DNA of 64,000 nt. Origin: Escherichia phage HP3.2. The position numbers were made by a program, and so were the translations under genes. This document shows positions 753 through 23,403 of the stretch, one piece after another (positions within the stretch are counted from its first letter, which is position 1; every line of letters begins with the position of its first letter). Under the pieces are notes generated by a model. That model had not been told where the DNA came from. It saw nothing but the letters and a program-made list of their open reading frames with translations, and searched no databases. The stretch lies in the sequence record OP978391.1, one strand, 5' to 3'.

Positions 753-1712
753 TCACTTCCACTGCATTTCACATGCTAACTGAATGAAAAGATAAGCTAA
801 ATGCAATTCAGTATTAGCTGCAATACCATGATACTGATTATTTTCGCCGACAATTTCGTACATACGAATAATACTCTGCGGAGTTACACGTGAATAGATT
901 TCTTCGGCAAGTTTACCTACGAACCACGAATAATCAGCTGCATATTTTGGTGCTAAAGCTCTGAGTTGTTTAACATCTTTATTTTTGAGAGACTCAAGAA
1001 CATCATCAATAGCACCACGATCGTTAGTAACCAGTGATAAAATACCAGCATCCAAAACACCTTTAGATGAATAACTATCGAGCTCGCCAATAGTTTTACG
1101 AAAATCAGGAAAATTCTTTTTAACCAAAGCTGCTACAACTTTCATATCAGCTATAGCAATTCCTTCATGCTTACAGATTTCAGTCAATCGACGAATCATC
1201 TGCTTCATCATTTCAATTTTATCTTCATCGGTCGGTTGACCGAACGTAATAACTCGGCAGCGTGACTGAAGTGGTTTAATAATACCATCAATATTGTTAG
1301 CAGTAATAATAATACTACAGTTTGAACTATAAGCTTCCATAAAGGAACGAAGATGTCGCTGAGACTCTGCTAATCCTGAGCGGTCAAATTCATCAATAAC
1401 GATTACTTTTTGACGACCATCAAATGAAGCGGCGCTGGCAAAATTAGTCAAAGGACCGCGAACGAAATCAATTTTACAATCTGATCCATTCACAAACATC
1501 ATATCAGCATTTACATCATGACACAATGCTTTTGCTACAGTTGTTTTACCTGTTCCTGGAGAAGGAGAATGAAGAATAATATGTGGAATCTTACCTTTAC
1601 TTGTAATAGATTTAAAGGTTTCTTTATCAAAGGCGGGAAGAATACATTCATCGATAGTAGATGGACGATATTTCTGTTCAAGAATGTGTTCTTTTTCATT
1701 TACGGTAATCAT
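753..1712 (-). CDS. 44: Clamp loader ATPase gp44
   Basis: ORF 753..1727; start taken at [11 protein letters not shown] (319 aa); Walker A GTGKTT; matches T4 gp44 from memory. Confidence 0.9.
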
Positions 1713-1744
1713 AATTTCCTCATTCAAGTTTTAGTGTAAATTAT

Positions 1745-1763
1745 AAAGGGCCGAAGCCCTTTA
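1745..1763 (-). terminator. GGGCTTCGGCCC stem-loop between genes 45 and 44
   Basis: Perfect 4-bp GC stem with UUCG loop on the minus strand directly after the gene 45 stop; same motif recurs at other gene junctions. Confidence 0.5.
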
Positions 1764-2450
1764 TTAAAAATCGTGGGTAGAATCAGCTTCAAGAGCTACC
1801 ACATAATTCGCGTGTTCACCTTCAAATTTAGCAGCACCTTGTTTACCTTTTGCCCAGAGCAGAAGTTTATAATTTCCTGGTTGCATTTTCATATTTGCCA
1901 TATTGATAATGAAATTAAATGTATTTTCACCATCATAATCACCAAGAGTCAAAGAATATTTAACACGGGTCAGAGCAGAATCTTCTACTTTATTAAAACC
2001 GTTAATTACGATTTTACCTTCTTTTACCGTGATAGCAATTGTATCAATTTGCAGACCACGAGATACACGCAACAGTTGTTGAAGGTCTTCAGCTTTAATT
2101 TCAGTAACAACAGATGCTACCGGAAATGGAATTGGTTTATTAGGAGCAACTACTGTACTCGGATCGGCTGCTGGCCAAAAAATTGTTGAACGAGCATCAG
2201 CAATTTTAATATTTCCATCTTCTGACTGGGAAATTTCTGCATCATCATTAACTAGCGACAGAATACCGAGAAAACCGTTCAAATCGTAAATTGCTACATC
2301 AAAATCAATAACGTCAGAAATATTTGCTTCCGCGTAAGTTGTACCATTAACTGCGCGAGTCATAATAAATTGACCGGATTTAAGCATAATGCCAGAGTTA
2401 ATAGTAGCGAAATTTTTCAAAATATTCAGTGTATCTTTAGACAGTTTCAT
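1764..2450 (-). CDS. 45: Sliding clamp gp45
   Basis: 228-aa ORF MKLSKDTLNILKNFATINSGIMLKSGQFIM...; matches T4 gp45 from memory. Confidence 0.92.
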   Translation of the reverse strand: MKLSKDTLNILKNFATINSGIMLKSGQFIMTRAVNGTTYAEANISDVIDFDVAIYDLNGFLGILSLVNDDAEISQSEDGNIKIADARSTIFWPAADPSTVVAPNKPIPFPVASVVTEIKAEDLQQLLRVSRGLQIDTIAITVKEGKIVINGFNKVEDSALTRVKYSLTLGDYDGENTFNFIINMANMKMQPGNYKLLLWAKGKQGAAKFEGEHANYVVALEADSTHDF

Positions 2451-2469
2451 GTAATTTCCTTCAATTCAA

Positions 2470-2505
2470 ATGAGATTTAATTTTATAACTAATTTAATAA
2501 AGCAA
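2470..2505 (-). promoter_or_regulatory. Candidate MotA-dependent middle promoter upstream of gene 45
   Basis: Minus strand reads TTGCTTTA (MotA-box-like) then about 10 nt then TATAAA/TAAAAT. Confidence 0.35.
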
Positions 2506-2895
2506 TTAACGATTAAAATCAGTTGCGATTGTTTCGGCAACAATTTGTGCAGCAACAATCAGACGTTCATCTGCATTACCACAATAATCATCTTCAAGGC
2601 GTTCACCACATGAAGTCATAATAAATTTAGCACCGGCGTTTAGGGATTCTGTAGTATGTTTGCGCATTAGTTCAATCCATTTATTACTTACTTCACGATC
2701 GATAGCTTCATAATACGCATGACGAGCAGGTGCAGATTTAATTTTGTTCTGAATAACTTCCATTGCGTTATCAGAAAGAGACAAAACCCATGCTCGACGA
2801 ATTTTATTTTGGTTTTGTGGATTTGATTCAGAACGCACGTGTTTTGGCTGAATATCTTTTACATCAACAGTATAATTCACAGTAATTTTAGTCAT
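2506..2895 (-). CDS. rpbA: RNA polymerase-binding protein RpbA
   Basis: 129-aa ORF in the T4 rpbA position between genes 45 and 45.2. Confidence 0.7.
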
Positions 2896-2904
2896 AATAC
2901 ACCT

Positions 2905-3093
2905 TTAGTCATAATAATCAGTAACAGTCCAAGCTTCATTTCTATTGGACATTATTTTTGTATATTCTGCTTTAAATGCATTCCTAAGCATAGATTCAGT
3001 AACTATATGCTCTTCATTAGAAAAATTATTTCTCAGAATATATCGTTTTATTTCAGGAAAAGTTAATAAATGCTGTCCAGTTGAATATTCCAT
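2905..3093 (-). CDS. Hypothetical protein, positional equivalent of T4 45.2
   Basis: 62-aa ORF between rpbA and gene 46. Confidence 0.5.
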   Translation of the reverse strand: MEYSTGQHLLTFPEIKRYILRNNFSNEEHIVTESMLRNAFKAEYTKIMSNRNEAWTVTDYYD

Positions 3094-3148
3094 GTTTTTC
3101 CTCCATAGAGATTATACTCTAATAAATTAAAGCATAATCTCTTATAAA

Positions 3149-4858
3149 TTAAACCATTACAGTAAATCGACCAACTTTCTTCATTTGAAGATGCTGACCA
3201 TATTCTTGCGGGTCATGGTCTTTATGCGAAATTATAAAAACATTAGTGTTTTTCATTGAATTTATAATATTAGCTACACCTTTAATACCTTCGGCATCAA
3301 ATGACCCATCAAACACTTCATCAAGAATTAATGTACTAATACTAACACCAGATACGATAGAAGCAATATCACGCCAAGTAAATAAAAGAGCAATATCAAT
3401 TCGTGCCTTTTCACCTTCACTAAATGAAGCATAACTAAAATCTTCACGACCACGGGATTTAATTGTCTCATTAAATTCTTCATCTAATGTAAACACATAA
3501 TCCGCTTCCATTATTTTAAGATAATGGTTAATCTGCTTATTAAATAATGGAATGTACTTTTTAATAATAGCACCTTTAATACCAGAATCTTTGAGCATAT
3601 CAGTCAAAATTCCTCGGTGGTATTTTTCCATTACTAAATTAGTTTTTGTCTTAACAATTTTATCAAGTTCTTCTTGAAGCAGTGCTATTTCATCAGCATG
3701 GTCAATAAACTCGGATGATGCTTTTTCTATAGCTGCTTTAACTTTTTTAGCTTTATCTACTGTCGTGATTAGAGATTGCTTTTTATTGCGAATATCATTT
3801 GCCAACGACTGCTGGGTTTTAATATTATCTCGGTATTCATCAACAAGAACTTTTAAATTATCACGGTGCGTTGAAAGCTGTTCAAACGAATGCGTACATT
3901 CAGAAACTTTATCTTTAATTTTAGAAACAACTTTATCACCGGAACTTAATTGTGACAAACAGGTTGGACATAATCCACCTTCGTGATACATATTAATGAC
4001 TTTATTATACGAGTCAATTTTTGATTTAATTAAAACTGCTTCTTGACCGATTTTATTAAATGCATCAGTCGGGTCTTCATCTAAAACAATATTAACTAAT
4101 CTTTCATTAGCTTCTTCTATTTCCGATTTTAGCGTTCTAGCTTCTTTTGCCAAATCATCATACATATTTTGTAGACGAGTAAGGTTGTCACCCGTTAATT
4201 TTTTCTGGCGTTCAACGTTATCATTATATATTTTAATTTGTTGGATAATACTATCTTTTTTAACATCAAGCACTTGGTTTTGTGAATTTAATTCACGTAT
4301 TAGTGCTTTATTAAGCTTATCCATTTCAGCTAATGTTCCTACCTCAAGCAGGTCTTCCACAAGCTTTCTTCGCGCAGGGGTCGACAAACCCATGAAAGGG
4401 GTATACCCTGCTGTACCAAGGACAACAATCTGCTTGAAACTGGCATATGACATTCCGATAAGCTGTTCAAATTCTGCTTGGAAATCTTTACTGCTGGCAG
4501 ATTCATTAAGACGTGTACCGTTAACGGTGATTTCGAAAACGTTTGGTTTTTGTCCTCTTTTGATATAGTACTTTTTCTCATCATATTCCATCCACAGTTC
4601 AACTAAAAGTTCTTTCTTATTTGTGCTGTTTATTAATTGACCTTTCTTAACATCACGAAATGGTTTACCGAAAAGTCCGAAAGTAATGGCTTCTAACATC
4701 GTAGATTTACCACCGCCATTTTTACCTGTGATTAAGGTCTTTTGGACTTTATCTAATTGGATATCGATAAAATTTTGCCCCTCGAATCCATCATCATCTT
4801 TAACGTCCATTTCGACTTCAAGCCTGAGTCCAGCATTGTTAAATTCATCTAAAGTCAT
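3149..4858 (-). CDS. 46: Recombination nuclease subunit gp46 (Rad50/SbcC-like ATPase)
   Basis: 569-aa ORF; Walker A GKNGGGKST, long coiled-coil middle, C-terminal LILDEVFDG signature; ATGA overlap with gene 47 stop; exact start uncertain. Confidence 0.85.
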   Translation of the reverse strand: MTLDEFNNAGLRLEVEMDVKDDDGFEGQNFIDIQLDKVQKTLITGKNGGGKSTMLEAITFGLFGKPFRDVKKGQLINSTNKKELLVELWMEYDEKKYYIKRGQKPNVFEITVNGTRLNESASSKDFQAEFEQLIGMSYASFKQIVVLGTAGYTPFMGLSTPARRKLVEDLLEVGTLAEMDKLNKALIRELNSQNQVLDVKKDSIIQQIKIYNDNVERQKKLTGDNLTRLQNMYDDLAKEARTLKSEIEEANERLVNIVLDEDPTDAFNKIGQEAVLIKSKIDSYNKVINMYHEGGLCPTCLSQLSSGDKVVSKIKDKVSECTHSFEQLSTHRDNLKVLVDEYRDNIKTQQSLANDIRNKKQSLITTVDKAKKVKAAIEKASSEFIDHADEIALLQEELDKIVKTKTNLVMEKYHRGILTDMLKDSGIKGAIIKKYIPLFNKQINHYLKIMEADYVFTLDEEFNETIKSRGREDFSYASFSEGEKARIDIALLFTWRDIASIVSGVSISTLILDEVFDGSFDAEGIKGVANIINSMKNTNVFIISHKDHDPQEYGQHLQMKKVGRFTVMV

Positions 4859-8825: not shown

Positions 8826-9095
8826 TTATCTAAGTAAGCAGTATGCTTGGAATACTTTCTCCATCATCTTTTTAAATTCATGAATATCTATATAATGACT
8901 AGTTAGATCAGCATGATATAAAAAGTCTAAAAACTTTTCATGTGTACTAACATATTCACTTTCATTTAATTCAGAAACATGGCTTTCCCAATATCCAACA
9001 CCAGTCTTATTTGGGAAAAATGAAATTTTCATGTATTGGTCAACATAGAAAATGCCATAATTTTCAATAGTAATAGAAATATTAATAAATTTCAT
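8826..9095 (-). CDS. Hypothetical protein
   Basis: 89-aa ORF; ATGA overlap with the upstream neighbour. Confidence 0.45.
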   Translation of the reverse strand: MKFINISITIENYGIFYVDQYMKISFFPNKTGVGYWESHVSELNESEYVSTHEKFLDFLYHADLTSHYIDIHEFKKMMEKVFQAYCLLR

Positions 9096-9307
9096 ACATT
9101 CATCAACTTAGCCGCTTCAAGAGCTGCATCTAGTGAATCAAATTGGTCAACATATTCAATCAATTCGCCGTAATTGGCATATAACCACCATTGGCTAAAT
9201 TCATACTCAAGAATGAATCCATTTCCTTCAATTTGAGTTAAACCACTGCCGTTTGTATTTACTTCATACCCAGCAAGACGTAAATCGTTAATAAGAGCTT
9301 CATTCAT
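9092..9307 (-). CDS. Hypothetical protein
   Basis: 71-aa ORF. Confidence 0.45.
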   Translation of the reverse strand: MNEALINDLRLAGYEVNTNGSGLTQIEGNGFILEYEFSQWWLYANYGELIEYVDQFDSLDAALEAAKLMNV

Positions 9308-9309
9308 AA

Positions 9310-9636
9310 TTATGCCTTAGTAATTTTCAGGTCAGCAAATTTTTTCTTGCGTTGATTTTTCATGCGACGAATAGTTTTATCGGAAATTTCATGCTTTTGA
9401 TAAGCTTTAGATTCTACACCAAAAGCTTTAACATCAAATTCTGACAAGATATATTGAACCAACAATTCACGGACAGTATTGCGTCCAATCTTCTGATCAT
9501 TCTGTTTCATCGTCTGATGAAGCTCTTTTTCCCATTTATCCAAAATTTGAGGAGTTACAATATCGCCTTTTTCTAGCAAAGAAACTACTTTATCATATGC
9601 GTAAGAATTGATGGCGTTTTTAATTTGAATAGTCAT
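9310..9636 (-). CDS. Hypothetical protein
   Basis: 108-aa ORF. Confidence 0.45.
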   Translation of the reverse strand: MTIQIKNAINSYAYDKVVSLLEKGDIVTPQILDKWEKELHQTMKQNDQKIGRNTVRELLVQYILSEFDVKAFGVESKAYQKHEISDKTIRRMKNQRKKKFADLKITKA

Positions 9637-9670
9637 ACATTATCCTCAATTACGTTAAAATTTTATTATC

Positions 9671-9689
9671 CAAAAAAGGGCCGAAGCCC
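9671..9689 (-). terminator. Rho-independent terminator (GGGCTTCGGCCC plus U6)
   Basis: Minus strand reads GGGCTTCGGCCCTTTTTTGG immediately after the stop of ORF 9690..9890. Confidence 0.6.
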
Positions 9690-9890
9690 TTAGCTAAACT
9701 TTTTGGCACCCTTCCAGCCTTCGTACATCATTGCGACTGACAATGACAAAGCTCCTTCACATGCTGTGTACTTATTATTCCAGAACCAATTTAGAAAAAC
9801 TTCATCCTCAATACCATTGTGTTTCATGTTCTGGAAAAATTTGGCGCGTTCTTCAGCAATTCGCTGCGATAATTTAGATTCAGGATTCAT
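9690..9890 (-). CDS. Hypothetical protein
   Basis: 66-aa ORF followed by a terminator. Confidence 0.45.
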   Translation of the reverse strand: MNPESKLSQRIAEERAKFFQNMKHNGIEDEVFLNWFWNNKYTACEGALSLSVAMMYEGWKGAKKFS

Positions 9891-10106
9891 TTAAATTTCC
9901 CAATTGCCATTTTCATCAATAAATTTAATCCAGTCATTTACTGACCACTTAGTTGTATCGCCTTTTGGAGTAACATTTAAAGTATATAACCCCTGCTTAA
10001 AAAGCATTCGTTTGATATTCATATTTTCCTCAGCTATAACGATAACACTCGTTTGATTTACGTTTAGCAACTCGTTGAGAAGTATTATAATCAAAATCAT
10101 CGTCAA
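9891..10106 (-). CDS. Hypothetical protein
   Basis: 71-aa ORF. Confidence 0.4.
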   Translation of the reverse strand: MTMILIIILLNELLNVNQTSVIVIAEENMNIKRMLFKQGLYTLNVTPKGDTTKWSVNDWIKFIDENGNWEI

Positions 10107-10323
10107 TGTAAACTGATTTTTTCAACTTTCTTACTTCACCGCGTAATTGACGATTTAACTCATCTTTAACTTCTGAATCAATACCTTTCATTCTACGCCA
10201 TTTATCTGAGCGAAAAATGTTTTCAACCATATCTTTATGACTTACACCATCAGGAGCTTTACGCTTTCCGAAATAGTCATAATCACGAACTTTCAAGTCT
10301 TTACGACGATACGTTTTACCCAT
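10030..10323 (-). CDS. Hypothetical basic protein
   Basis: ORF 10030..10362; start taken at MGKTYRRKDLKV where it overlaps the upstream stop (TAATG-type). Confidence 0.4.
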   Translation of the reverse strand: MGKTYRRKDLKVRDYDYFGKRKAPDGVSHKDMVENIFRSDKWRRMKGIDSEVKDELNRQLRGEVRKLKKSVYIDDDFDYNTSQRVAKRKSNECYRYS

Positions 10324-10492
10324 GGAGTTTAATTTCCTTAGCAACTGAACTAAATGCAGCACGATCGCAAATCAAGCGTTTATTCCATTTAAGTAAAGTA
10401 TAGTGAACCTCAAAATCATCTACTGCTGTAACAATAACGATATGTCCATTAACACGATAATACTGATCTCTTTTAATCTCTTTATCAACCAT
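10316..10492 (-). CDS. Hypothetical small protein
   Basis: 58-codon ORF MVDKEIKRDQYYRVNGHIVIVTAVDDFEVHY... read by hand. Confidence 0.35.
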   Translation of the reverse strand: MVDKEIKRDQYYRVNGHIVIVTAVDDFEVHYTLLKWNKRLICDRAAFSSVAKEIKLHG

Positions 10493-10512
10493 ATCAATTC
10501 CTCAAAGGCAAT

Positions 10513-10552
10513 TCATATGTTAATAATACCACGGTTTGAACTTGTTGTAAAC
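10513..10552 (-). promoter_or_regulatory. T4-type early promoter
   Basis: Minus strand reads GTTTAC, about 18 nt, then GGTATTAT. Confidence 0.5.
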
Positions 10553-10650
10553 AACTTTGTGAAAAATATTTTAGGGAATGATAAGAAGGGAACGATAACT
10601 TAGAATGGTAATATACAGAATGTGAGAAAGAAAGGCCCAGAGGGCCCGTC

Positions 10651-10974
10651 TTAATCTTCTATGATATCTCTATCATATCCAAGTGAAATGAGAGTTTCTT
10701 TGAAGTGTTTAATGTTCTTTTGTCTAGAATCATTAATGAAAATGACTGGATAACGAATGTTAAGAGATGTGAATCCAGCACGTTTAGCAAGAGATACAAT
10801 CAGTGGACGATCATACTCAATCTTACCATTATTTGTAAGAACTTTATAGAAAGTAAAAGGAGCATTGAGCTCCTTTAGAAGTTTTGTAACTGATTGACAT
10901 CCAGGACAACGACCTACTTCTTCGGGGATGCCATAGATTTCAATCTTATTCTTTAAGTTCGAGTTTTGTTCCAC
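10651..10974 (-). CDS. nrdH: Glutaredoxin-like protein NrdH; probable GTG start
   Basis: CPGC redox motif in ...IEIYGIPEEVGRCPGCQSVTKLL...; no in-frame ATG clear of the upstream gene; a GTG with AAGGAA 9 nt upstream gives 107 aa. Confidence 0.55.
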   Translation of the reverse strand: MEQNSNLKNKIEIYGIPEEVGRCPGCQSVTKLLKELNAPFTFYKVLTNNGKIEYDRPLIVSLAKRAGFTSLNIRYPVIFINDSRQKNIKHFKETLISLGYDRDIIED

Positions 10975-11257
10975 GAGAAATAATTCCTTGATAAGCCCAG
11001 TATGGCGGGTTAACAGAATCCTCACCAGAGTTTTCTTCAGGAAAATAAACCTGGATAACAAATCCAGATGCATCAAAGGTAAAATAAACCGTAGGCAGTT
11101 CACCTAACAATTCGGCACGAGCATTAATTTCTTCGAGATCTCGTTCACGTCCAGCCCAAAAACTAGGATTTAGACTACATTCGTAAAAATAATAGTCATT
11201 ACCGAACATATCAAAACCCTTCCAACTCTCTACCACATACCGCTCAAAACTAATCAT
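10946..11257 (-). CDS. Hypothetical protein
   Basis: 103-aa ORF overlapping the nrdH start. Confidence 0.45.
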   Translation of the reverse strand: MISFERYVVESWKGFDMFGNDYYFYECSLNPSFWAGRERDLEEINARAELLGELPTVYFTFDASGFVIQVYFPEENSGEDSVNPPYWAYQGIISRGTKLELKE

Positions 11258-11259
11258 AA

Positions 11260-11475
11260 TTAAGCCTTTTTATCAAGAACAGAATTCAGCTTGTTAGTAA
11301 TTTTATCCAGACGCTCATTGAACTCGCTAGAAGATAAACTCTTTTCTGGAGAAATCAAACTAATCACGAAAAATATAGCAATAAAAGGAATAAGGAAAAT
11401 AGCTCCAACTGCCATAAACAGAAAGAACGTTACAGTTGTAAGAAAATCAGCTAAACCTTTACGAAATTTATACAT
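11260..11475 (-). CDS. Small membrane protein
   Basis: 71-aa ORF with hydrophobic core FFLFMAVGAIFLIPFIAIFFVISLI. Confidence 0.45.
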   Translation of the reverse strand: MYKFRKGLADFLTTVTFFLFMAVGAIFLIPFIAIFFVISLISPEKSLSSSEFNERLDKITNKLNSVLDKKA

Positions 11476-16511: not shown

Positions 16512-16901
16512 TTAATCCAAAATATTATTAGGCATTGGTTGAACACTCACAAGTTCTTTAAAGAACTCAGTAGAGTCAGGCAATTTAACCATTTCCGGAG
16601 CATGCTTACTGAATTTATGTTTACATTGACGGCATTTATATTCAAGCTCTGGTTTACGCCAGTTAATCAACTGAACTTGTTCAGTACCGCATTCAGGGCA
16701 ATTAGGAACGTTTTTAGAAGCTCTTTCACGTCGTTCAACCATAGCCATAATAGCATCCCATGCTGGAGGTTTAAAATCTAAATCGTCGCAGCCGTGAATC
16801 TTTCCACGCATTTCCATATCATCTTCCTCACCAGCCATAATAATTTTAATTAAACTGGAATTACTTGAAGCTGCAATGTCTTCTAATAAACGCTTTTTCA
16901 T
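16512..16901 (-). CDS. Zinc-ribbon protein
   Basis: 129-aa ORF with CPECG...CRQC. Confidence 0.5.
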
Positions 16902-17827
16902 TTCAATACCTCAATAGCATTACGTAAACCATTTGCTTTTGCATTAAGAGCTTTTAACAATTTGGTGTGTTCTGCAATTTGGGCTTCAACTTCAATCAAA
17001 CGGGCATTGAGATATTCACGTTCTTCACTCAGATTATCAACCTTTTCTACTTTAGGCTCTTTTACAACTGTCTTATATGTATTAGGGTTCTTCAGTTTAA
17101 TTAGAATGCGTGAACTGTATAACATTGAACCATTATCTTCGGTTTCGTCATACATTTCCACTACGTCCATAATTTTTAACATCATGCGGAGTTTATAAGA
17201 CAACGAACGAATAGTTTTGTTGTGCTTATTAATTTCTTTAGCTGTCATGGTGCCAAGATTACGTGAGTAATAATAAGGAACCTGGATATTAATTAATACT
17301 GATGAACCACCTGGCTTGTGTGTTACTTCATCAGCAATAACCCAGTCCTTAACATGAACTGTATTTGTACGGTCATCGCCCGCGGTAAATAGTTTGCGAG
17401 CATGCTTAAAAAGCATATTCACTTGGTCATTGAATTGACAAGCAAATTTATCAGCAAATTTAGTTTCAGGAATGGTAGAAAACCAATCAGCCAAATGAGT
17501 CTTTTTAACATCATTAACAATAGTAAATTCAACCAAATCGGTTATAGATGTCTCAGATTTAATGAAGCTCGGCTTCATAAAGTTTTTAATGTTCTCATGA
17601 GCTACAGTAGAAGATAACATACGAGAACGTTTAAACCATTCAAGCAAATTGCCTAACGAATGAGAATAAGCGTTTTGAGTATCTTTACAGATATGATTTT
17701 CCTGACCAACATATTGAAGGAAATCACGAAGAATATTATTGATTACTGCTCTGTGCCCGATCTGATAATTACGGTGTTTAGTAATAAGACTGTCAAAATA
17801 ATCAATATAATGTTTACGAGTTTTCAT
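16898..17827 (-). CDS. Hypothetical protein with C-terminal coiled coil
   Basis: 309-aa ORF; last 45 aa heptad-rich ([44 protein letters not shown]). Confidence 0.55.
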   Translation of the reverse strand: MKTRKHYIDYFDSLITKHRNYQIGHRAVINNILRDFLQYVGQENHICKDTQNAYSHSLGNLLEWFKRSRMLSSTVAHENIKNFMKPSFIKSETSITDLVEFTIVNDVKKTHLADWFSTIPETKFADKFACQFNDQVNMLFKHARKLFTAGDDRTNTVHVKDWVIADEVTHKPGGSSVLINIQVPYYYSRNLGTMTAKEINKHNKTIRSLSYKLRMMLKIMDVVEMYDETEDNGSMLYSSRILIKLKNPNTYKTVVKEPKVEKVDNLSEEREYLNARLIEVEAQIAEHTKLLKALNAKANGLRNAIEVLK

Positions 17828-17879
17828 ATTCTTCTCACTTGGTTAATGGTTTATACTCCGAGCCATCCTTGGCTTTAAA

Positions 17880-18881
17880 TTACTTAATTAACTGTAAAGC
17901 TTGTTCAAGACGATCAAGACGATTAACGGATTCTTCCCAAATCTTTTTAGCCTGCTCATATTCTTTCTGCGCTTTATTAGAAATTTCTAGAACTTCTTTA
18001 TAAGCTTTTTCTAGTGCAATAACTTCTGGACGAATTTCTACTGGTTCAGGCGAATCGTCAAGACATTCCATTAGTTCCTCAAGGGTAGTTTCTTCTTTAG
18101 GAGTATTCACAATTTCATCACATTTTTGTTGGTAAATTTCTTTATCAGTCGGTGAGTACGCACACTTTACTTCACGGAGACTAACTACAATTTTATATCC
18201 TTCCCAACCGCATATATTCTTAAAAGGATAAGTATGAATATTTTCTACTGTTTCCATACAAAGTAATGCGGTCTCTAACTGACGAGTTATATCGCTAGCA
18301 ATTGAGAAAAATTTATTAATGTTCTTTTGATTAGCTTCTGGTGTAAAAAATTCATAATTCACAAAAATAGCTGCTTTATTTTTATCAAGCTCATATTCTT
18401 TTATGATAATCATATCAGAAGCCCAAGGATGGATTTGACGATAATCACCATAGCATAATTTAGAAGCTGATTTTAGAATTTGCTTCTTGAAAAGTCTAAA
18501 ATTACTAATCCAACGACGAGTAAAAATATTCTCAGGGTCTTCTTTATTATTAAGATGATAAGAATTAACATCACCGAACCAACTGTATCCTACTACATCT
18601 TTAGTTCGTTTAATTTCTTTCCCAAATTTACCAAGAATATCTTGATTAACTAAATATGAAAGAAGACGAGAACCTTTAAAAGTTTCCTTAATATCATCTT
18701 TATATTCGCGACTAGAAATTTTATGAACTTCATGAATAAATTTGCTTGAAGAAACAATACTTGCATCAATATTATTGAGCCATTGATTGATAATGGAAAT
18801 AACACTATTCTGACTAAACACAGGTTTAACTTTATCATCAATAACGCTATTGAATGATTTGATATATTCGTTACGAGTCAT
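17880..18881 (-). CDS. Hypothetical protein with C-terminal coiled coil
   Basis: ORF 17880..18932; start taken at MTRNEYIKS, preceded by GAGGAG and a TGTGGTATAAT promoter; shares motif RRWISNFRLFKKQILKSASKL with the next gene. Confidence 0.55.
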   Translation of the reverse strand: MTRNEYIKSFNSVIDDKVKPVFSQNSVISIINQWLNNIDASIVSSSKFIHEVHKISSREYKDDIKETFKGSRLLSYLVNQDILGKFGKEIKRTKDVVGYSWFGDVNSYHLNNKEDPENIFTRRWISNFRLFKKQILKSASKLCYGDYRQIHPWASDMIIIKEYELDKNKAAIFVNYEFFTPEANQKNINKFFSIASDITRQLETALLCMETVENIHTYPFKNICGWEGYKIVVSLREVKCAYSPTDKEIYQQKCDEIVNTPKEETTLEELMECLDDSPEPVEIRPEVIALEKAYKEVLEISNKAQKEYEQAKKIWEESVNRLDRLEQALQLIK

Positions 18882-18896
18882 ATTAATCTCCTCAGT

Positions 18897-18929
18897 AGAA
18901 AGTAAGAACATTATACCACATCCTTGTGG
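18897..18929 (-). promoter_or_regulatory. T4-type early promoter
   Basis: Minus strand reads GTTTAC, spacer, then TGTGGTATAAT. Confidence 0.5.
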
Positions 18930-18938
18930 CAAAGTAAA

Positions 18939-19961
18939 CTAGTTTAGTGCATTTAGTGCGTTGTTCAGTTTAGAACGTTGCTTCGTAAGATTTTTGACTT
19001 TTTCTTGAGCTTTTTCTAGCATCTTTTCAGCTTCTAACACTTCATTAGTTGCTTTAACGAGTTCATCATCTACTGCCTTGATAGACTTCTCAATCGCATC
19101 CGCGTGCCATTTTTCAACAGGTTTAAGACTCGGATTTTCAACAGGAAGAAAATTCACTTTATTGAATTTCCATGTATCTTTATTACCTGAACTATACATC
19201 CAAAATTTAGGATCGTTTGATGAGTAATTGGATAAATTTAAGATATCTTGCACTTCCTGCTTTTTCTCTTGCGGGACTTCGTCCTTTCTCAAAAAATCGT
19301 ATTTAAATGAAACGATCATATCAAGTTCATACGTTGTTGTATGTTCCCAATTTCGCTCAAAATGAGGTAAAATCTTAGACTGAACCGCGGCAACTACATC
19401 CATATACTTAAATGCTTCTGTCAACTGTGATTTAAGGCATTCACAAATTGAAAGAGAATTTTTTGTATTAGGTTTAAAGCTAATTCGTGCAGTTCTGTTA
19501 TTTTCTTTTAATGGTCTTACTTCCATCTGAAGAGTATAACCATCAAATTTCAGATTCTTTAAGTTAATATCAGAACCTTTTAATCGACTAGCAGTAGACA
19601 AAATTTGCTTTAATTGTTTACGGAATAGAGCAATAAATCTCCATTCAATACGATAATGATTTGGATTGAAAAATCCAGATGATAAATCGACCTTACTCTG
19701 ACCAACACCTTGAACAAATAGAGGATTTTTATAATCAATAGTTTTACAGAAATCGGTGAGCTGTTCACGAGCAGTCATTTGAGTAATATACCCAGCTTCA
19801 TTAAAATTACGCACCCATTCACTGCTGTTCAGATGTTTAAAGGCGTGAATGGAACAATTAACTTTACCAAGGTCTAAATTATTTTCGCACAAAAATGTCA
19901 TAGCATCACGAGTATAGCTGGCATTACGAACCATATCTTCAATTTGAGAACGAGTTTTCAT
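18939..19961 (-). CDS. Hypothetical protein with C-terminal coiled coil
   Basis: 340-aa ORF; motif RIEWRFIALFRKQLKQILSTASRL; C-terminal heptads. Confidence 0.55.
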   Translation of the reverse strand: MKTRSQIEDMVRNASYTRDAMTFLCENNLDLGKVNCSIHAFKHLNSSEWVRNFNEAGYITQMTAREQLTDFCKTIDYKNPLFVQGVGQSKVDLSSGFFNPNHYRIEWRFIALFRKQLKQILSTASRLKGSDINLKNLKFDGYTLQMEVRPLKENNRTARISFKPNTKNSLSICECLKSQLTEAFKYMDVVAAVQSKILPHFERNWEHTTTYELDMIVSFKYDFLRKDEVPQEKKQEVQDILNLSNYSSNDPKFWMYSSGNKDTWKFNKVNFLPVENPSLKPVEKWHADAIEKSIKAVDDELVKATNEVLEAEKMLEKAQEKVKNLTKQRSKLNNALNALN

Positions 19962-19969
19962 GGTGTTCC

Positions 19970-20878
19970 TTAAGATTTAAGTAAATCGATAATTTTAATT
20001 AACTTTTCACGCTCAGATTTAGCTTTACTACTCAGTCCAGATAGTCTGAAAATTTCATCATCATATTGTTGAATAGAAATATTCAGCTCTTCAATTTGCT
20101 TATTAAAATAATCAATTTGCTCAGAATGTTTTTCATTACTACGAACTGGTACAGGTTTTGTAGGCAATTTAGTTGAACTGGATTCATCCGGGCGATAAAT
20201 TAAAATACAACTTGAACCAATAGGGCATTTTGCACCAGATGAATATTCTAATGTTCCGGCTTCTTTTAAAACTTCAAAAGCTAAACAGAGATGATGCCCC
20301 ATATTAACATAATCTGTAGAGTGAGCTCTGATATAATAATCATCGCCACGAATACTAAATTTAAAGCATTTAAGGTCTTCTGTATTATTGGTCTTAAAAA
20401 TCATTTGTTTATCTAGACCTTTAGCTAATCGAGCGCCTAATGCTAATAATCGTCGTTGATTTTCCCACAAATCTGCGATCATTTGGTCAAATGATAATTT
20501 CGGCATTAATCGACCATAAAGGTCATATCCTTTATTATAATTGCGAAGGATTTCACTCGCATTAATACGAGACAACGCTCCAATTTTATTAAGGGCTTTC
20601 ATGATGCGATTAGATAAACCCATTCCAGACCCGTTTGTTCGTTGTAAATGTTTATCTAATCCAAACCCAATATCAACTTTAAATTTATCTAAAATTTCAG
20701 CATGAACATCTCTGTCAATAACATTCAAATCCAAAGTTGGGTTAAATCTATGAAAAAATTTATCTGGCTCTCCACGACGAAGTACAGTCCATTCATTCAA
20801 TTTTTTATTAACTAAAGATTTAATTACTGCATTGACATTATTAATTACTACTGACATATTTTCCTCACTCAATTTCAA
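19970..20878 (-). CDS. Hypothetical protein with C-terminal coiled coil
   Basis: 302-aa ORF; C-terminus EQIDYFNKQIEELNISIQQYDDEIFRL... Confidence 0.5.
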   Translation of the reverse strand: MKLSEENMSVVINNVNAVIKSLVNKKLNEWTVLRRGEPDKFFHRFNPTLDLNVIDRDVHAEILDKFKVDIGFGLDKHLQRTNGSGMGLSNRIMKALNKIGALSRINASEILRNYNKGYDLYGRLMPKLSFDQMIADLWENQRRLLALGARLAKGLDKQMIFKTNNTEDLKCFKFSIRGDDYYIRAHSTDYVNMGHHLCLAFEVLKEAGTLEYSSGAKCPIGSSCILIYRPDESSSTKLPTKPVPVRSNEKHSEQIDYFNKQIEELNISIQQYDDEIFRLSGLSSKAKSEREKLIKIIDLLKS

Positions 20879-21272: not shown

Positions 21273-21327
21273 AATAATCTCAATTAAAAGGGCTTAGAAC
21301 CATTATACCATCCTTGGTATAAAGCGG

Positions 21328-21855
21328 TTATGCGAGTACCGTCTTTAACCGTTCTTCAAACTTCCGAAGAGTATTTTGGCGTTCAGCTCTTTGCTTTTTG
21401 TAAGTTTCAATACGCTCTGAAATGAGAGTGTATCGTTCATTTACTGATTCTTTCATAAAATCAGGAATTTCACGAGAAGCTTTAATCTCATCAAATTTAT
21501 CAATAACAGCTTGCTCTTCAGCAATTAAGTTATCATACATCAAAATATCTTTCTTGATGAACTCAATATCTTCTTGAGTTACACGAGATAATTTAGATGC
21601 TTTATCCTTTTTGTACTGTTCGTTAGTATCACGAGACCAGTGTAATGTACGATTTTTATTCGTATTCTTGTAAATTTCTACAATACCAATCTCATCGATA
21701 ATAACGATCCAATTCCAACGAGATTTGTAAATTTGTCCTCCGTCAACCGTGATTTCACCTCCGATTGAGATGTCATTAAAGAACTTGCTTTGTGCTTCAG
21801 ATTTAAATTTACCATCGTTGTAATTTACCAGGTTGAAAATATCTTTAGCGTTCAT
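21328..21855 (-). CDS. Hypothetical protein
   Basis: 175-aa ORF, charged C-terminal half. Confidence 0.5.
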   Translation of the reverse strand: MNAKDIFNLVNYNDGKFKSEAQSKFFNDISIGGEITVDGGQIYKSRWNWIVIIDEIGIVEIYKNTNKNRTLHWSRDTNEQYKKDKASKLSRVTQEDIEFIKKDILMYDNLIAEEQAVIDKFDEIKASREIPDFMKESVNERYTLISERIETYKKQRAERQNTLRKFEERLKTVLA

Positions 21856-23375: not shown

Positions 23376-23401
23376 TAAAAAAAGGGAGCCCGAAGGCTCC
23401 C
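23376..23401 (-). terminator. Rho-independent terminator
   Basis: Minus strand reads GGGAGCCTTCGGGCTCCC followed by TTTTTTT, directly after the stop of the 337-aa gene. Confidence 0.65.
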
Positions 23402-23403
23402 TA

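Follow-up and report, generated by a model that had tools for sequence, protein, structure and literature searches.

Which purpose is served, in the accessory region around nrdC of a T4-like phage, by four consecutive genes of similar size whose products all end in a heptad-rich tail? The question is raised by positions 16898-20878, minus strand, of the window (the whole stretch of 64,000 nucleotides from Escherichia phage HP3.2, record OP978391.1, that was analysed). Over these positions the sequence agrees at 100% identity with the T4-like Escherichia phage HP3 (NC_041919) and constitutes the HP3 copy of T4 nrdC.3-nrdC.6; a pathogenic E. coli strain was the target in the isolation of HP3, the host of which is listed as E. 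coli CP9. An initial annotation, made from the letters alone, had proposed host-takeover or anti-defence functions for this block. The anti-defence guess was right for at least one member, NrdC.5, as the T4 orthologue of this protein is 91% identical, syntenic and counters the defence protein Dsr1. For the block as a whole, we consider it fairly probable that it represents a tandem array of four diverged paralogues, each of which inhibits or decoys a different host immune sensor. The anti-defence reading is thus established for one member and extended conditionally to the other three, because the function of T4 nrdC.5 has been published and neighbouring genes counter the OLD and Septu defences.

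The functional evidence comes from T4. Srikant, Guegler & Laub (eLife 2022) described a laboratory-evolved T4 deletion mutant that the SIR2-domain defence protein Dsr1 kept from plating on ECOR17; on MG1655 with dsr1, plating was regained once T4 nrdC.5 was expressed (PMC9391042). By plaque complementation, the anti-defence role of nrdC.5 is established for the T4 gene, and this key function is therefore already published. The HP3 protein (18939..19961, minus strand) is the orthologue of T4 NrdC.5: both are 91% identical over 340 residues, the gene order nrdC.6-nrdC.5-nrdC.4 is conserved with nrdC.5 at the same position between its two neighbours, and both share Pfam family DUF7235 (PF23882), which the HP3 protein matches over profile positions 1-307 of 307 with an E-value (E) of 9.7e-126 and 419.8 bits (cut-off 30). 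The phenotype itself belongs to the T4 allele acting against ECOR17 Dsr1, and the HP3 allele differs at about 9% of residues. HP3 NrdC.3, NrdC.4 and NrdC.6, in turn, would be remote paralogues of T4 NrdC.5, not orthologues. No later work on the mechanism of NrdC.5, or on nrdC.3, nrdC.4 and nrdC.6, was found in the literature; for the latter three, anti-defence is a plausible candidate function.

Two nearby genes have anti-defence activities of their own, with gp49.2 countering OLD and NrdC.1 countering Septu. Both are located, like the block genes, within a few kb in this early accessory region; both are also non-essential and devoid of known domains. They differ in being small (about 80-105 amino acids) and unrelated to the nrdC.3-nrdC.6 family, and they have no coiled-coil tail. 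A functional analogue is DSAD1 of an SPbeta-like phage. As is proposed for NrdC.5, DSAD1 is described as a phage protein without enzymatic domains that disables a SIR2-domain NADase defence, and it was observed bound to DSR2 in cryo-electron microscopy structures. Its target is DSR2, not Dsr1, it stems from a different phage lineage, and homology is not claimed.

The four consecutive open reading frames (ORFs) of the initial annotation proved to be real, conserved minus-strand genes. Comparison with the annotated T4 genome identifies them as orthologues of nrdC.3, nrdC.4, nrdC.5 and nrdC.6, flanked by nrdC/nrdC.1/nrdC.2 on one side and by nrdC.7/nrdC.8 on the other. DNA resembling the block occurs in 656 phage records, almost all of them from T4-like coliphages; as T4 ORFs the genes have long been known, and they do not constitute a new kind of system. 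The sizes first given were correct for three proteins (309, 333 and 340 amino acids), but the fourth more likely comprises 295 residues, not 302. Its most likely start is the ATG at 20857, because a GAGGAA Shine-Dalgarno sequence lies 3 nucleotides upstream and the T4 and RefSeq annotations agree on it; the earlier start, TTG 20878, has neither such a ribosome-binding site nor that agreement, and it overlaps nrdC.7. Accordingly, nrdC.6 spans 19970..20857 (phrog_2257, E 5.5e-153). The nrdC.3 orthologue (16898..17827; phrog_1435, E 7.8e-116), assigned from the T4 map, is the paralogue of nrdC.4 and the most polymorphic gene of the block, and nrdC.4 itself (17880..18881, with an ATG start) matches the same phrog_1435 with E 2e-166. 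Homologues of NrdC.4 carry PF26897, and PF26899 is carried by 105 of 105 NrdC.6 homologues; membership in PF26897 is known via the NrdC.4 homologues, while NrdC.3 is placed by its phrog_1435 match. The RefSeq copy used (NC_041919) bears the taxonomy line 'Caudoviricetes; Rosemountvirus' despite a clearly T4-like (Tequatrovirus-type) genome.

That no catalytic signature could be recognized in any of the four proteins was confirmed, as Pfam, PHROGs, NCBIfam, PADLOC and PDB sequences gave no catalytic or known domain. In the comparison with PDB sequences, no solved structure of any family member was detectable by sequence, and the sole match among the PADLOC defence-system models was a 13-bit coiled-coil match to BrxC (E 0.005). 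In many GenBank records, nrdC.3 to nrdC.7 are labelled 'thioredoxin' without any thioredoxin domain, a label that goes back to propagation of the locus name 'nrdC.x'. It was rejected here, with no thioredoxin family found at E<=1 in Pfam or E<=0.1 in NCBIfam and no CxxC motif seen on reading the four protein sequences.

Are the four proteins related to one another? The middle two had been called clear paralogues, which holds at profile level (hhalign probability 95-97%) but not by BLASTP, where NrdC.4 against NrdC.5 gives E 0.39. The clear pair is NrdC.3/NrdC.4, which belong to the same PHROG and align in BLASTP with E 6e-6 and 25% identity over 229 residues. Since pairwise BLASTP among the four is significant for this pair alone, profile and structural comparisons were needed. 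The family alignments of NrdC.3 and NrdC.4 match each other with an hhalign probability of 98.3% (E 2.6e-14). After divergent relatives from other genera had joined the NrdC.5 alignment, this family reached 95.4% against NrdC.4 and 97.3% (E 2.5e-11) against NrdC.3 and NrdC.4 combined. The motif on which the earlier claim was based is real: the NrdC.5-NrdC.4 hhalign alignment passes through it (W..F..L..A.[KR]L..GD; NrdC.4 residues 119-148, 18438..18527, minus strand), and it maps to helices 119-148 of the NrdC.4 model, the corresponding helical stretch of NrdC.6 being 123-150.

Structural comparison made use of AlphaFold2 (AF2) models, built with family alignments, of NrdC.4 (predicted local distance difference test, pLDDT, 86) and NrdC.6 (pLDDT 78). 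Both share one order of elements, in which N-terminal helices precede the motif helices and a beta-beta-alpha-beta-beta module is followed by a linker and a terminal helix. When BFVD was searched by Foldseek with the NrdC.4 model, the matches included JS10 NrdC.6 with E 9e-5 as well as a 308-residue protein of Yersinia phage fPS-65 with E 4e-7, which is taken to be an NrdC.3 orthologue from its length and source name. Paralogy was thus borne out and extends to all four genes, by hhalign for three of them and by structure alone for NrdC.6. To judge from the profiles, NrdC.3, NrdC.4 and NrdC.5 can be regarded with high confidence as diverged paralogues, and with moderate confidence the predicted fold would make NrdC.6 a further one. 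Pfam DUF7235 (PF23882), PF26897 and PF26899 as well as PHROGs 1435, 2351 and 2257 already hold these four proteins. In the databases they form three unrelated families with no assigned function, whereas here they are joined into one head-plus-tail family with a common architecture; this unification is what is new, and it is a modest family-level insight.

The heptad-rich C-terminal ends were likewise found in all four proteins. Heptads were scored by hydrophobic occupancy of the a and d positions in 35-residue windows and compared with shuffles of the same segment and of the whole protein. The best window falls within the last 60 or so residues each time, namely at 271-305 of 309 in NrdC.3, 282-316 of 333 in NrdC.4, 290-324 of 340 in NrdC.5 and 245-279 of 295 in NrdC.6. 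Segment shuffles gave p values of 0.0014, 0.0024, 0.0002 and 0.0006, respectively, so that the tail heptads reflect pattern and not composition, and the possibility that the coiled-coil calls are composition artefacts, which the initial annotation itself had raised, was not borne out (p<=0.0024 in all four). Whole-protein shuffles gave p values of 0.013-0.15, with two tails at only 0.09-0.15. On the minus strand, the tails occupy 16901..17035 (NrdC.3, residues ~265-309), 17883..18029 (NrdC.4, residues 285-333), 18942..19115 (NrdC.5, residues ~283-340, where all 35-residue windows starting at 284-306 score at least 0.6) and 19973..20137 (NrdC.6, residues 241-295). In the model of NrdC.4, the tail is a single uninterrupted helix of 48 residues (285-332) preceded by a disordered linker; in that of NrdC.6, it is a terminal helical hairpin with helices 241-271 and 277-294. 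Hence, the tails show heptad periodicity beyond composition and lie in predicted long helices (NrdC.4 and NrdC.6).

Compared to HP3, the T4 reference nrdC.6 (NC_000866, 15997-16200; window 19970-20170) carries a 1-nucleotide deletion (GCTGAATATT to GCTGATATT). The resulting frameshift gives a protein of 275 residues in which the coiled-coil tail is lost, although the +1 frame still contains the intact tail sequence. Either a mutation of the laboratory strain or a sequencing error would explain the deletion, and the allele would serve as a natural tail-less one.

The block had also been called diversifying. This is justified in so far as its genes diverge fast compared to their neighbours, undergo allele replacement by recombination and are gained and lost, but not in the sense of gene-wide positive selection: the pairwise ratio of non-synonymous to synonymous substitution rates (dN/dS) is 0.05-0.35 for the block genes, above that of most neighbours and well below 1 throughout. 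Within Tequatrovirus, identity to HP3 is 95-100% for the neighbours gp49, nrdC, nrdC.1, nrdC.8, nrdC.10 and nrdC.11, and a few loci have lower values for pin and nrdD. Identity to HP3 in the block is 91-100% for NrdC.4, 94-99% for NrdC.6, 89-95% for NrdC.5 and either 95-98% or just 61% for NrdC.3, which occurs in the phage collection as three allele classes of at least 92%, about 75% and about 60% identity. Across genera, identity falls to 25-29% for NrdC.5, 32-48% for NrdC.6 and 45-51% for NrdC.4, compared to 67-91% for the conserved neighbours gp49, NrdC, NrdC.8, NrdC.10 and NrdC.11. Gene content varies as well, with nrdC.3,.4,.5 and.6 present in Tequatrovirus,.4, a.5-like gene (split in SP18) and.6 in Dhakavirus and Gaprivervirus, and.3, a.5-like and a.6-like gene in Mosigvirus.

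Sliding nucleotide identity between HP3 and T4 delimits a sharply bounded divergent cassette of about 1.2 kb (16513..17700), which takes in most of nrdC.3 along with the 3' part of nrdC.2. Identity within it is mostly 46-73%, with 6% at the 3' edge and 87-89% across the nrdC.2/nrdC.3 junction, and the flanks are 96-100% identical. Among genomes (loci L003-L007), nrdC.2, nrdC.3 and nrdC.4 have had their alleles reshuffled independently of one another. The gene nrdC.2 (window 16512-16901, minus strand; 129 amino acids), the 3' part of which lies in the cassette, encodes a zinc-ribbon protein with two CxxC pairs (Zn_ribbon_8, E 7e-6, below cut-off); its alleles are divergent (61-100% identity), and its C-terminus is longer than that of T4 NrdC.2.

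Natural rearrangements combine parts of different block genes. In phage ACG-C40 (4305-4716), a deletion has left only ~68 codons from the start of nrdC.5, now fused to the final 72 codons of nrdC.3, which encode its tail; nrdC.4 is gone entirely, together with most of nrdC.5 and nrdC.3, and nrdC.6 is intact. A 299-residue protein on a 167-kb contig (P0056) joins NrdC.5 residues 146-272 to NrdC.3 residues 129-309 with loss of nrdC.4, and a 378-residue protein of Shigella phage Sf25 (P0121) is an NrdC.6 with an internal tandem duplication of 83 residues (176-258). One apparent head swap was set aside, a 173-residue protein (P0231) with an unrelated head of 120 residues and a tail 100% identical to that of HP3 NrdC.5; it may be a real head swap or an assembly chimera, given that it stems from a metagenome contig of 803 bp and that nothing in the phage collection matches its head.

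In every family, the tails are more conserved than the heads. Tail and head identities are 78% versus 60% for NrdC.3 (HP3 against T4), 76% versus 29% for NrdC.4 against its homologue P0120, and 58-62% versus 30-39% for NrdC.6 across genera, the Mosigvirus protein showing 58% and 30%. Exposed heptad positions b, c, e, f and g are also more conserved than the head average. On this comparison, the tails are under more constraint than the heads, which is a finding added by the present analysis.

How could such proteins act? Each consists of an alpha/beta head of ~225-250 residues, a disordered linker and a C-terminal amphipathic heptad helix of 45-55 residues. The NrdC.5 orthologue would neutralize the SIR2-type NADase defence protein Dsr1, and on the likeliest model each paralogue would be a non-enzymatic, stoichiometric inhibitor or decoy that presumably binds a different host immune sensor directly. 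The fast-evolving head may determine target specificity, and the conserved tail may mediate oligomerization (avidity) or docking to a common partner.

Several points weigh against this proposal. Experimental support exists for one of the four genes, as a plaque-complementation phenotype in T4 and not in HP3. By sequence, NrdC.6 reaches an hhalign probability of only 5-11% against the other families, which is not significant, and its link depends on a single Foldseek match together with the matching secondary-structure order. With dN/dS below 1 throughout, gene-wide positive selection was not found, and a dS of about 1 for NrdC.3 suggests that old alleles have been exchanged by recombination rather than changed by recent adaptation. 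Furthermore, the a and d positions of the tails include Ala and Ser, so that these are not textbook coiled coils, and oligomerization is put forward as a proposal. The high conservation of the tails could even indicate a function unrelated to defence.

In another explanation, NrdC.5 alone is an anti-defence protein. NrdC.3, NrdC.4 and NrdC.6 would then have regulatory or host-takeover functions as accessory proteins, acting for instance on host proteins or on nucleic-acid transactions, and would share only ancestry and architecture with NrdC.5. Ordinary purifying selection would account for the dN/dS values of 0.05-0.35, and the literature search gave no functional data for these three proteins. 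Moreover, residues 30-86 of NrdC.3 (window 17570-17740) show, in two libraries, a weak resemblance to the SAM-like, DNA-binding core-binding domain at the N-terminus of tyrosine recombinases, with E 0.12 for Pfam Phage_int_SAM_1 and E 0.003-0.03 for the NCBIfam XerD/XerC models, all far below cut-offs. Yet all four genes behave alike in being accessory, variably present and rapidly diverging, they lie within a cluster of proven anti-defence genes, and they are dispensable in natural isolates. We see this explanation as doubtful, albeit with an appreciable chance of being correct.

An indirect action of NrdC.5 is unlikely as well. Here, the protein would mask or sequester the phage trigger of Dsr1 or alter infection physiology, which would make the family trigger-shielding chaperones instead of sensor inhibitors. 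However, no data connect NrdC.5 to the capsid protein, and the structural resemblance that might be invoked is modest; it emerged with NrdC.4 rather than NrdC.5, and the NrdC.6 model did not reproduce it.

The architecture also occurs beyond the coliphages. The BFVD search with the NrdC.4 model yielded 18 matches at E<=1e-3, two of which are short NrdC.4 fragments (87-97% identical). The remainder are mostly uncharacterized proteins of 280-375 amino acids; a few are unnamed, and all those with an organism name come from phages, with T4-like phages of Acinetobacter, Pectobacterium, Erwinia, Serratia, Klebsiella, Enterobacter and Yersinia represented. Two of the matches are adjacent genes of Acinetobacter phage Acj61, p120 and p121, located just downstream of nrdC and both endowed with heptad tails. 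Their sequences are beyond profile detection, and the likeness is one of structure; the head-plus-tail family is syntenic at least between coliphages and Acj61. An exhaustive HMMER search with the NrdC.5 profile gave only 13 matches in 1.84 billion representatives and no bacterial relatives; one of these, a 621-residue protein (P0235), was rejected as a repetitive coiled-coil false positive. Two stretches of Acj61 (1229-3938 and 9028-11322) further encode a nicotinamide phosphoribosyltransferase and a ribose-phosphate pyrophosphokinase, a pair of enzymes that forms a possible salvage route for nicotinamide adenine dinucleotide (NAD+) relevant to NADase defences, as well as a tandem pair of hypothetical proteins of 372 amino acids annotated as copies of each other.

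It is conceivable, if quite improbable, that a modular decoy system extends across genera and hosts, made up of nrdC.3-nrdC.6 and of these look-alikes near nrdC in distantly related T4-like phages. The swappable heads, with a sub-domain resembling virion neck or tail-terminator proteins, would be produced early and would pre-occupy host sensors meant for late structural proteins, the sensing of capsid protein by Dsr1 serving as example. The conserved tails might bring the heads together in multivalent homo- or hetero-oligomers or attach them to a shared hub, and each paralogue or allele would thereby blind a sensor of its own.

The same resemblance could be taken to mean that the proteins are themselves virion-assembly or structural accessory factors akin to tail terminator or completion proteins, which is very improbable. 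Identity to such proteins (lambda gpU, T5 p142, SPP1 gp17-like, gene transfer agent and SaPI1 neck proteins) is 4-17% without sequence similarity, and the tail-terminator likeness was not recovered with the NrdC.6 model. The NrdC proteins differ from them by additional N-terminal helices and a coiled-coil tail. Moreover, the genes of the block are prereplicative, dispensable accessory genes of the nrdC-mobD region, situated downstream of early- and middle-type promoter-like sites, and have been lost by deletion from viable natural phages as well as from T4 evolved in the laboratory. A normal burst size of the nrdC.5 deletion on permissive hosts is implied by the T4 study, in which nrdC.5 is also called an early gene (PMC9391042).

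Finally, that four unrelated ORFs are of similar size by chance and carry tails that are composition artefacts has next to no chance of being true and is already refuted: most BLASTP pairs are non-significant and the whole-protein shuffles are weak for two tails, but the segment shuffles, the long terminal helices of the AF2 models, the C-terminal position of the best window in all four proteins and also in the Acj61 homologues, and the profile and structural links between the families all speak against it.

With regard to expression, a generic sigma-70 scan of the region returned 37 sites compared to 33 expected by chance, i.e., no enrichment; only the two intergenic sites whose sequences fit T4 promoter forms are therefore reported, both as consensus matches only. 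The first, upstream of nrdC.4 (18910..18938, minus strand), reads TTTACT-17-TATAAT with a TG before the -10 hexamer (10 of 12 positions matching, extended -10), which is the form of T4 early promoters. The second, upstream of nrdC.7 (21302..21325, minus strand; GCTTTA-12 nucleotides-TATAAT), is a MotA-type middle-promoter-like site according to the MotA-box consensus. Its position is that of the T4 middle promoter PnrdC.7, which has been mapped (PMC2988021). Transcription from this second site would read through nrdC.7 into nrdC.6 and nrdC.5. Further along the window, a strong bidirectional GC-rich hairpin (8 bp, six of them GC pairs) with a T-run is found at 23383-23402, just past the nrdC.11 stop; it looks like an intrinsic terminator and is followed by promoter-like sites upstream of nrdC.10.

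A strong terminal heptad segment is also present in NrdC.8 (window 21328-21855, minus strand; 175 amino acids) at residues 136-170, with a segment-shuffle p of 0.0006. Despite this tail, NrdC.8 was rejected as a fifth family member, the hhalign probability being below 1%. Unlike the nrdC.3-nrdC.6 block, it is 99-100% conserved within the genus and 67-85% across genera.

T4-like phages are leading candidates for phage therapy, and accessory anti-defence genes are among the factors that set the host range of these phages. In this context, paralogy with NrdC.5 accounts for the allele and presence/absence polymorphism at the locus and turns three genes annotated as 'hypothetical' or 'thioredoxin' into specific, testable anti-defence candidates: nrdC.3, nrdC.4 and nrdC.6 are good candidates because they are paralogues of NrdC.5, which has been published as blocking Dsr1. 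The suggested division of labour, in which the variable head would select the target and the conserved tail would serve assembly, can guide studies of how Dsr1 is switched off.

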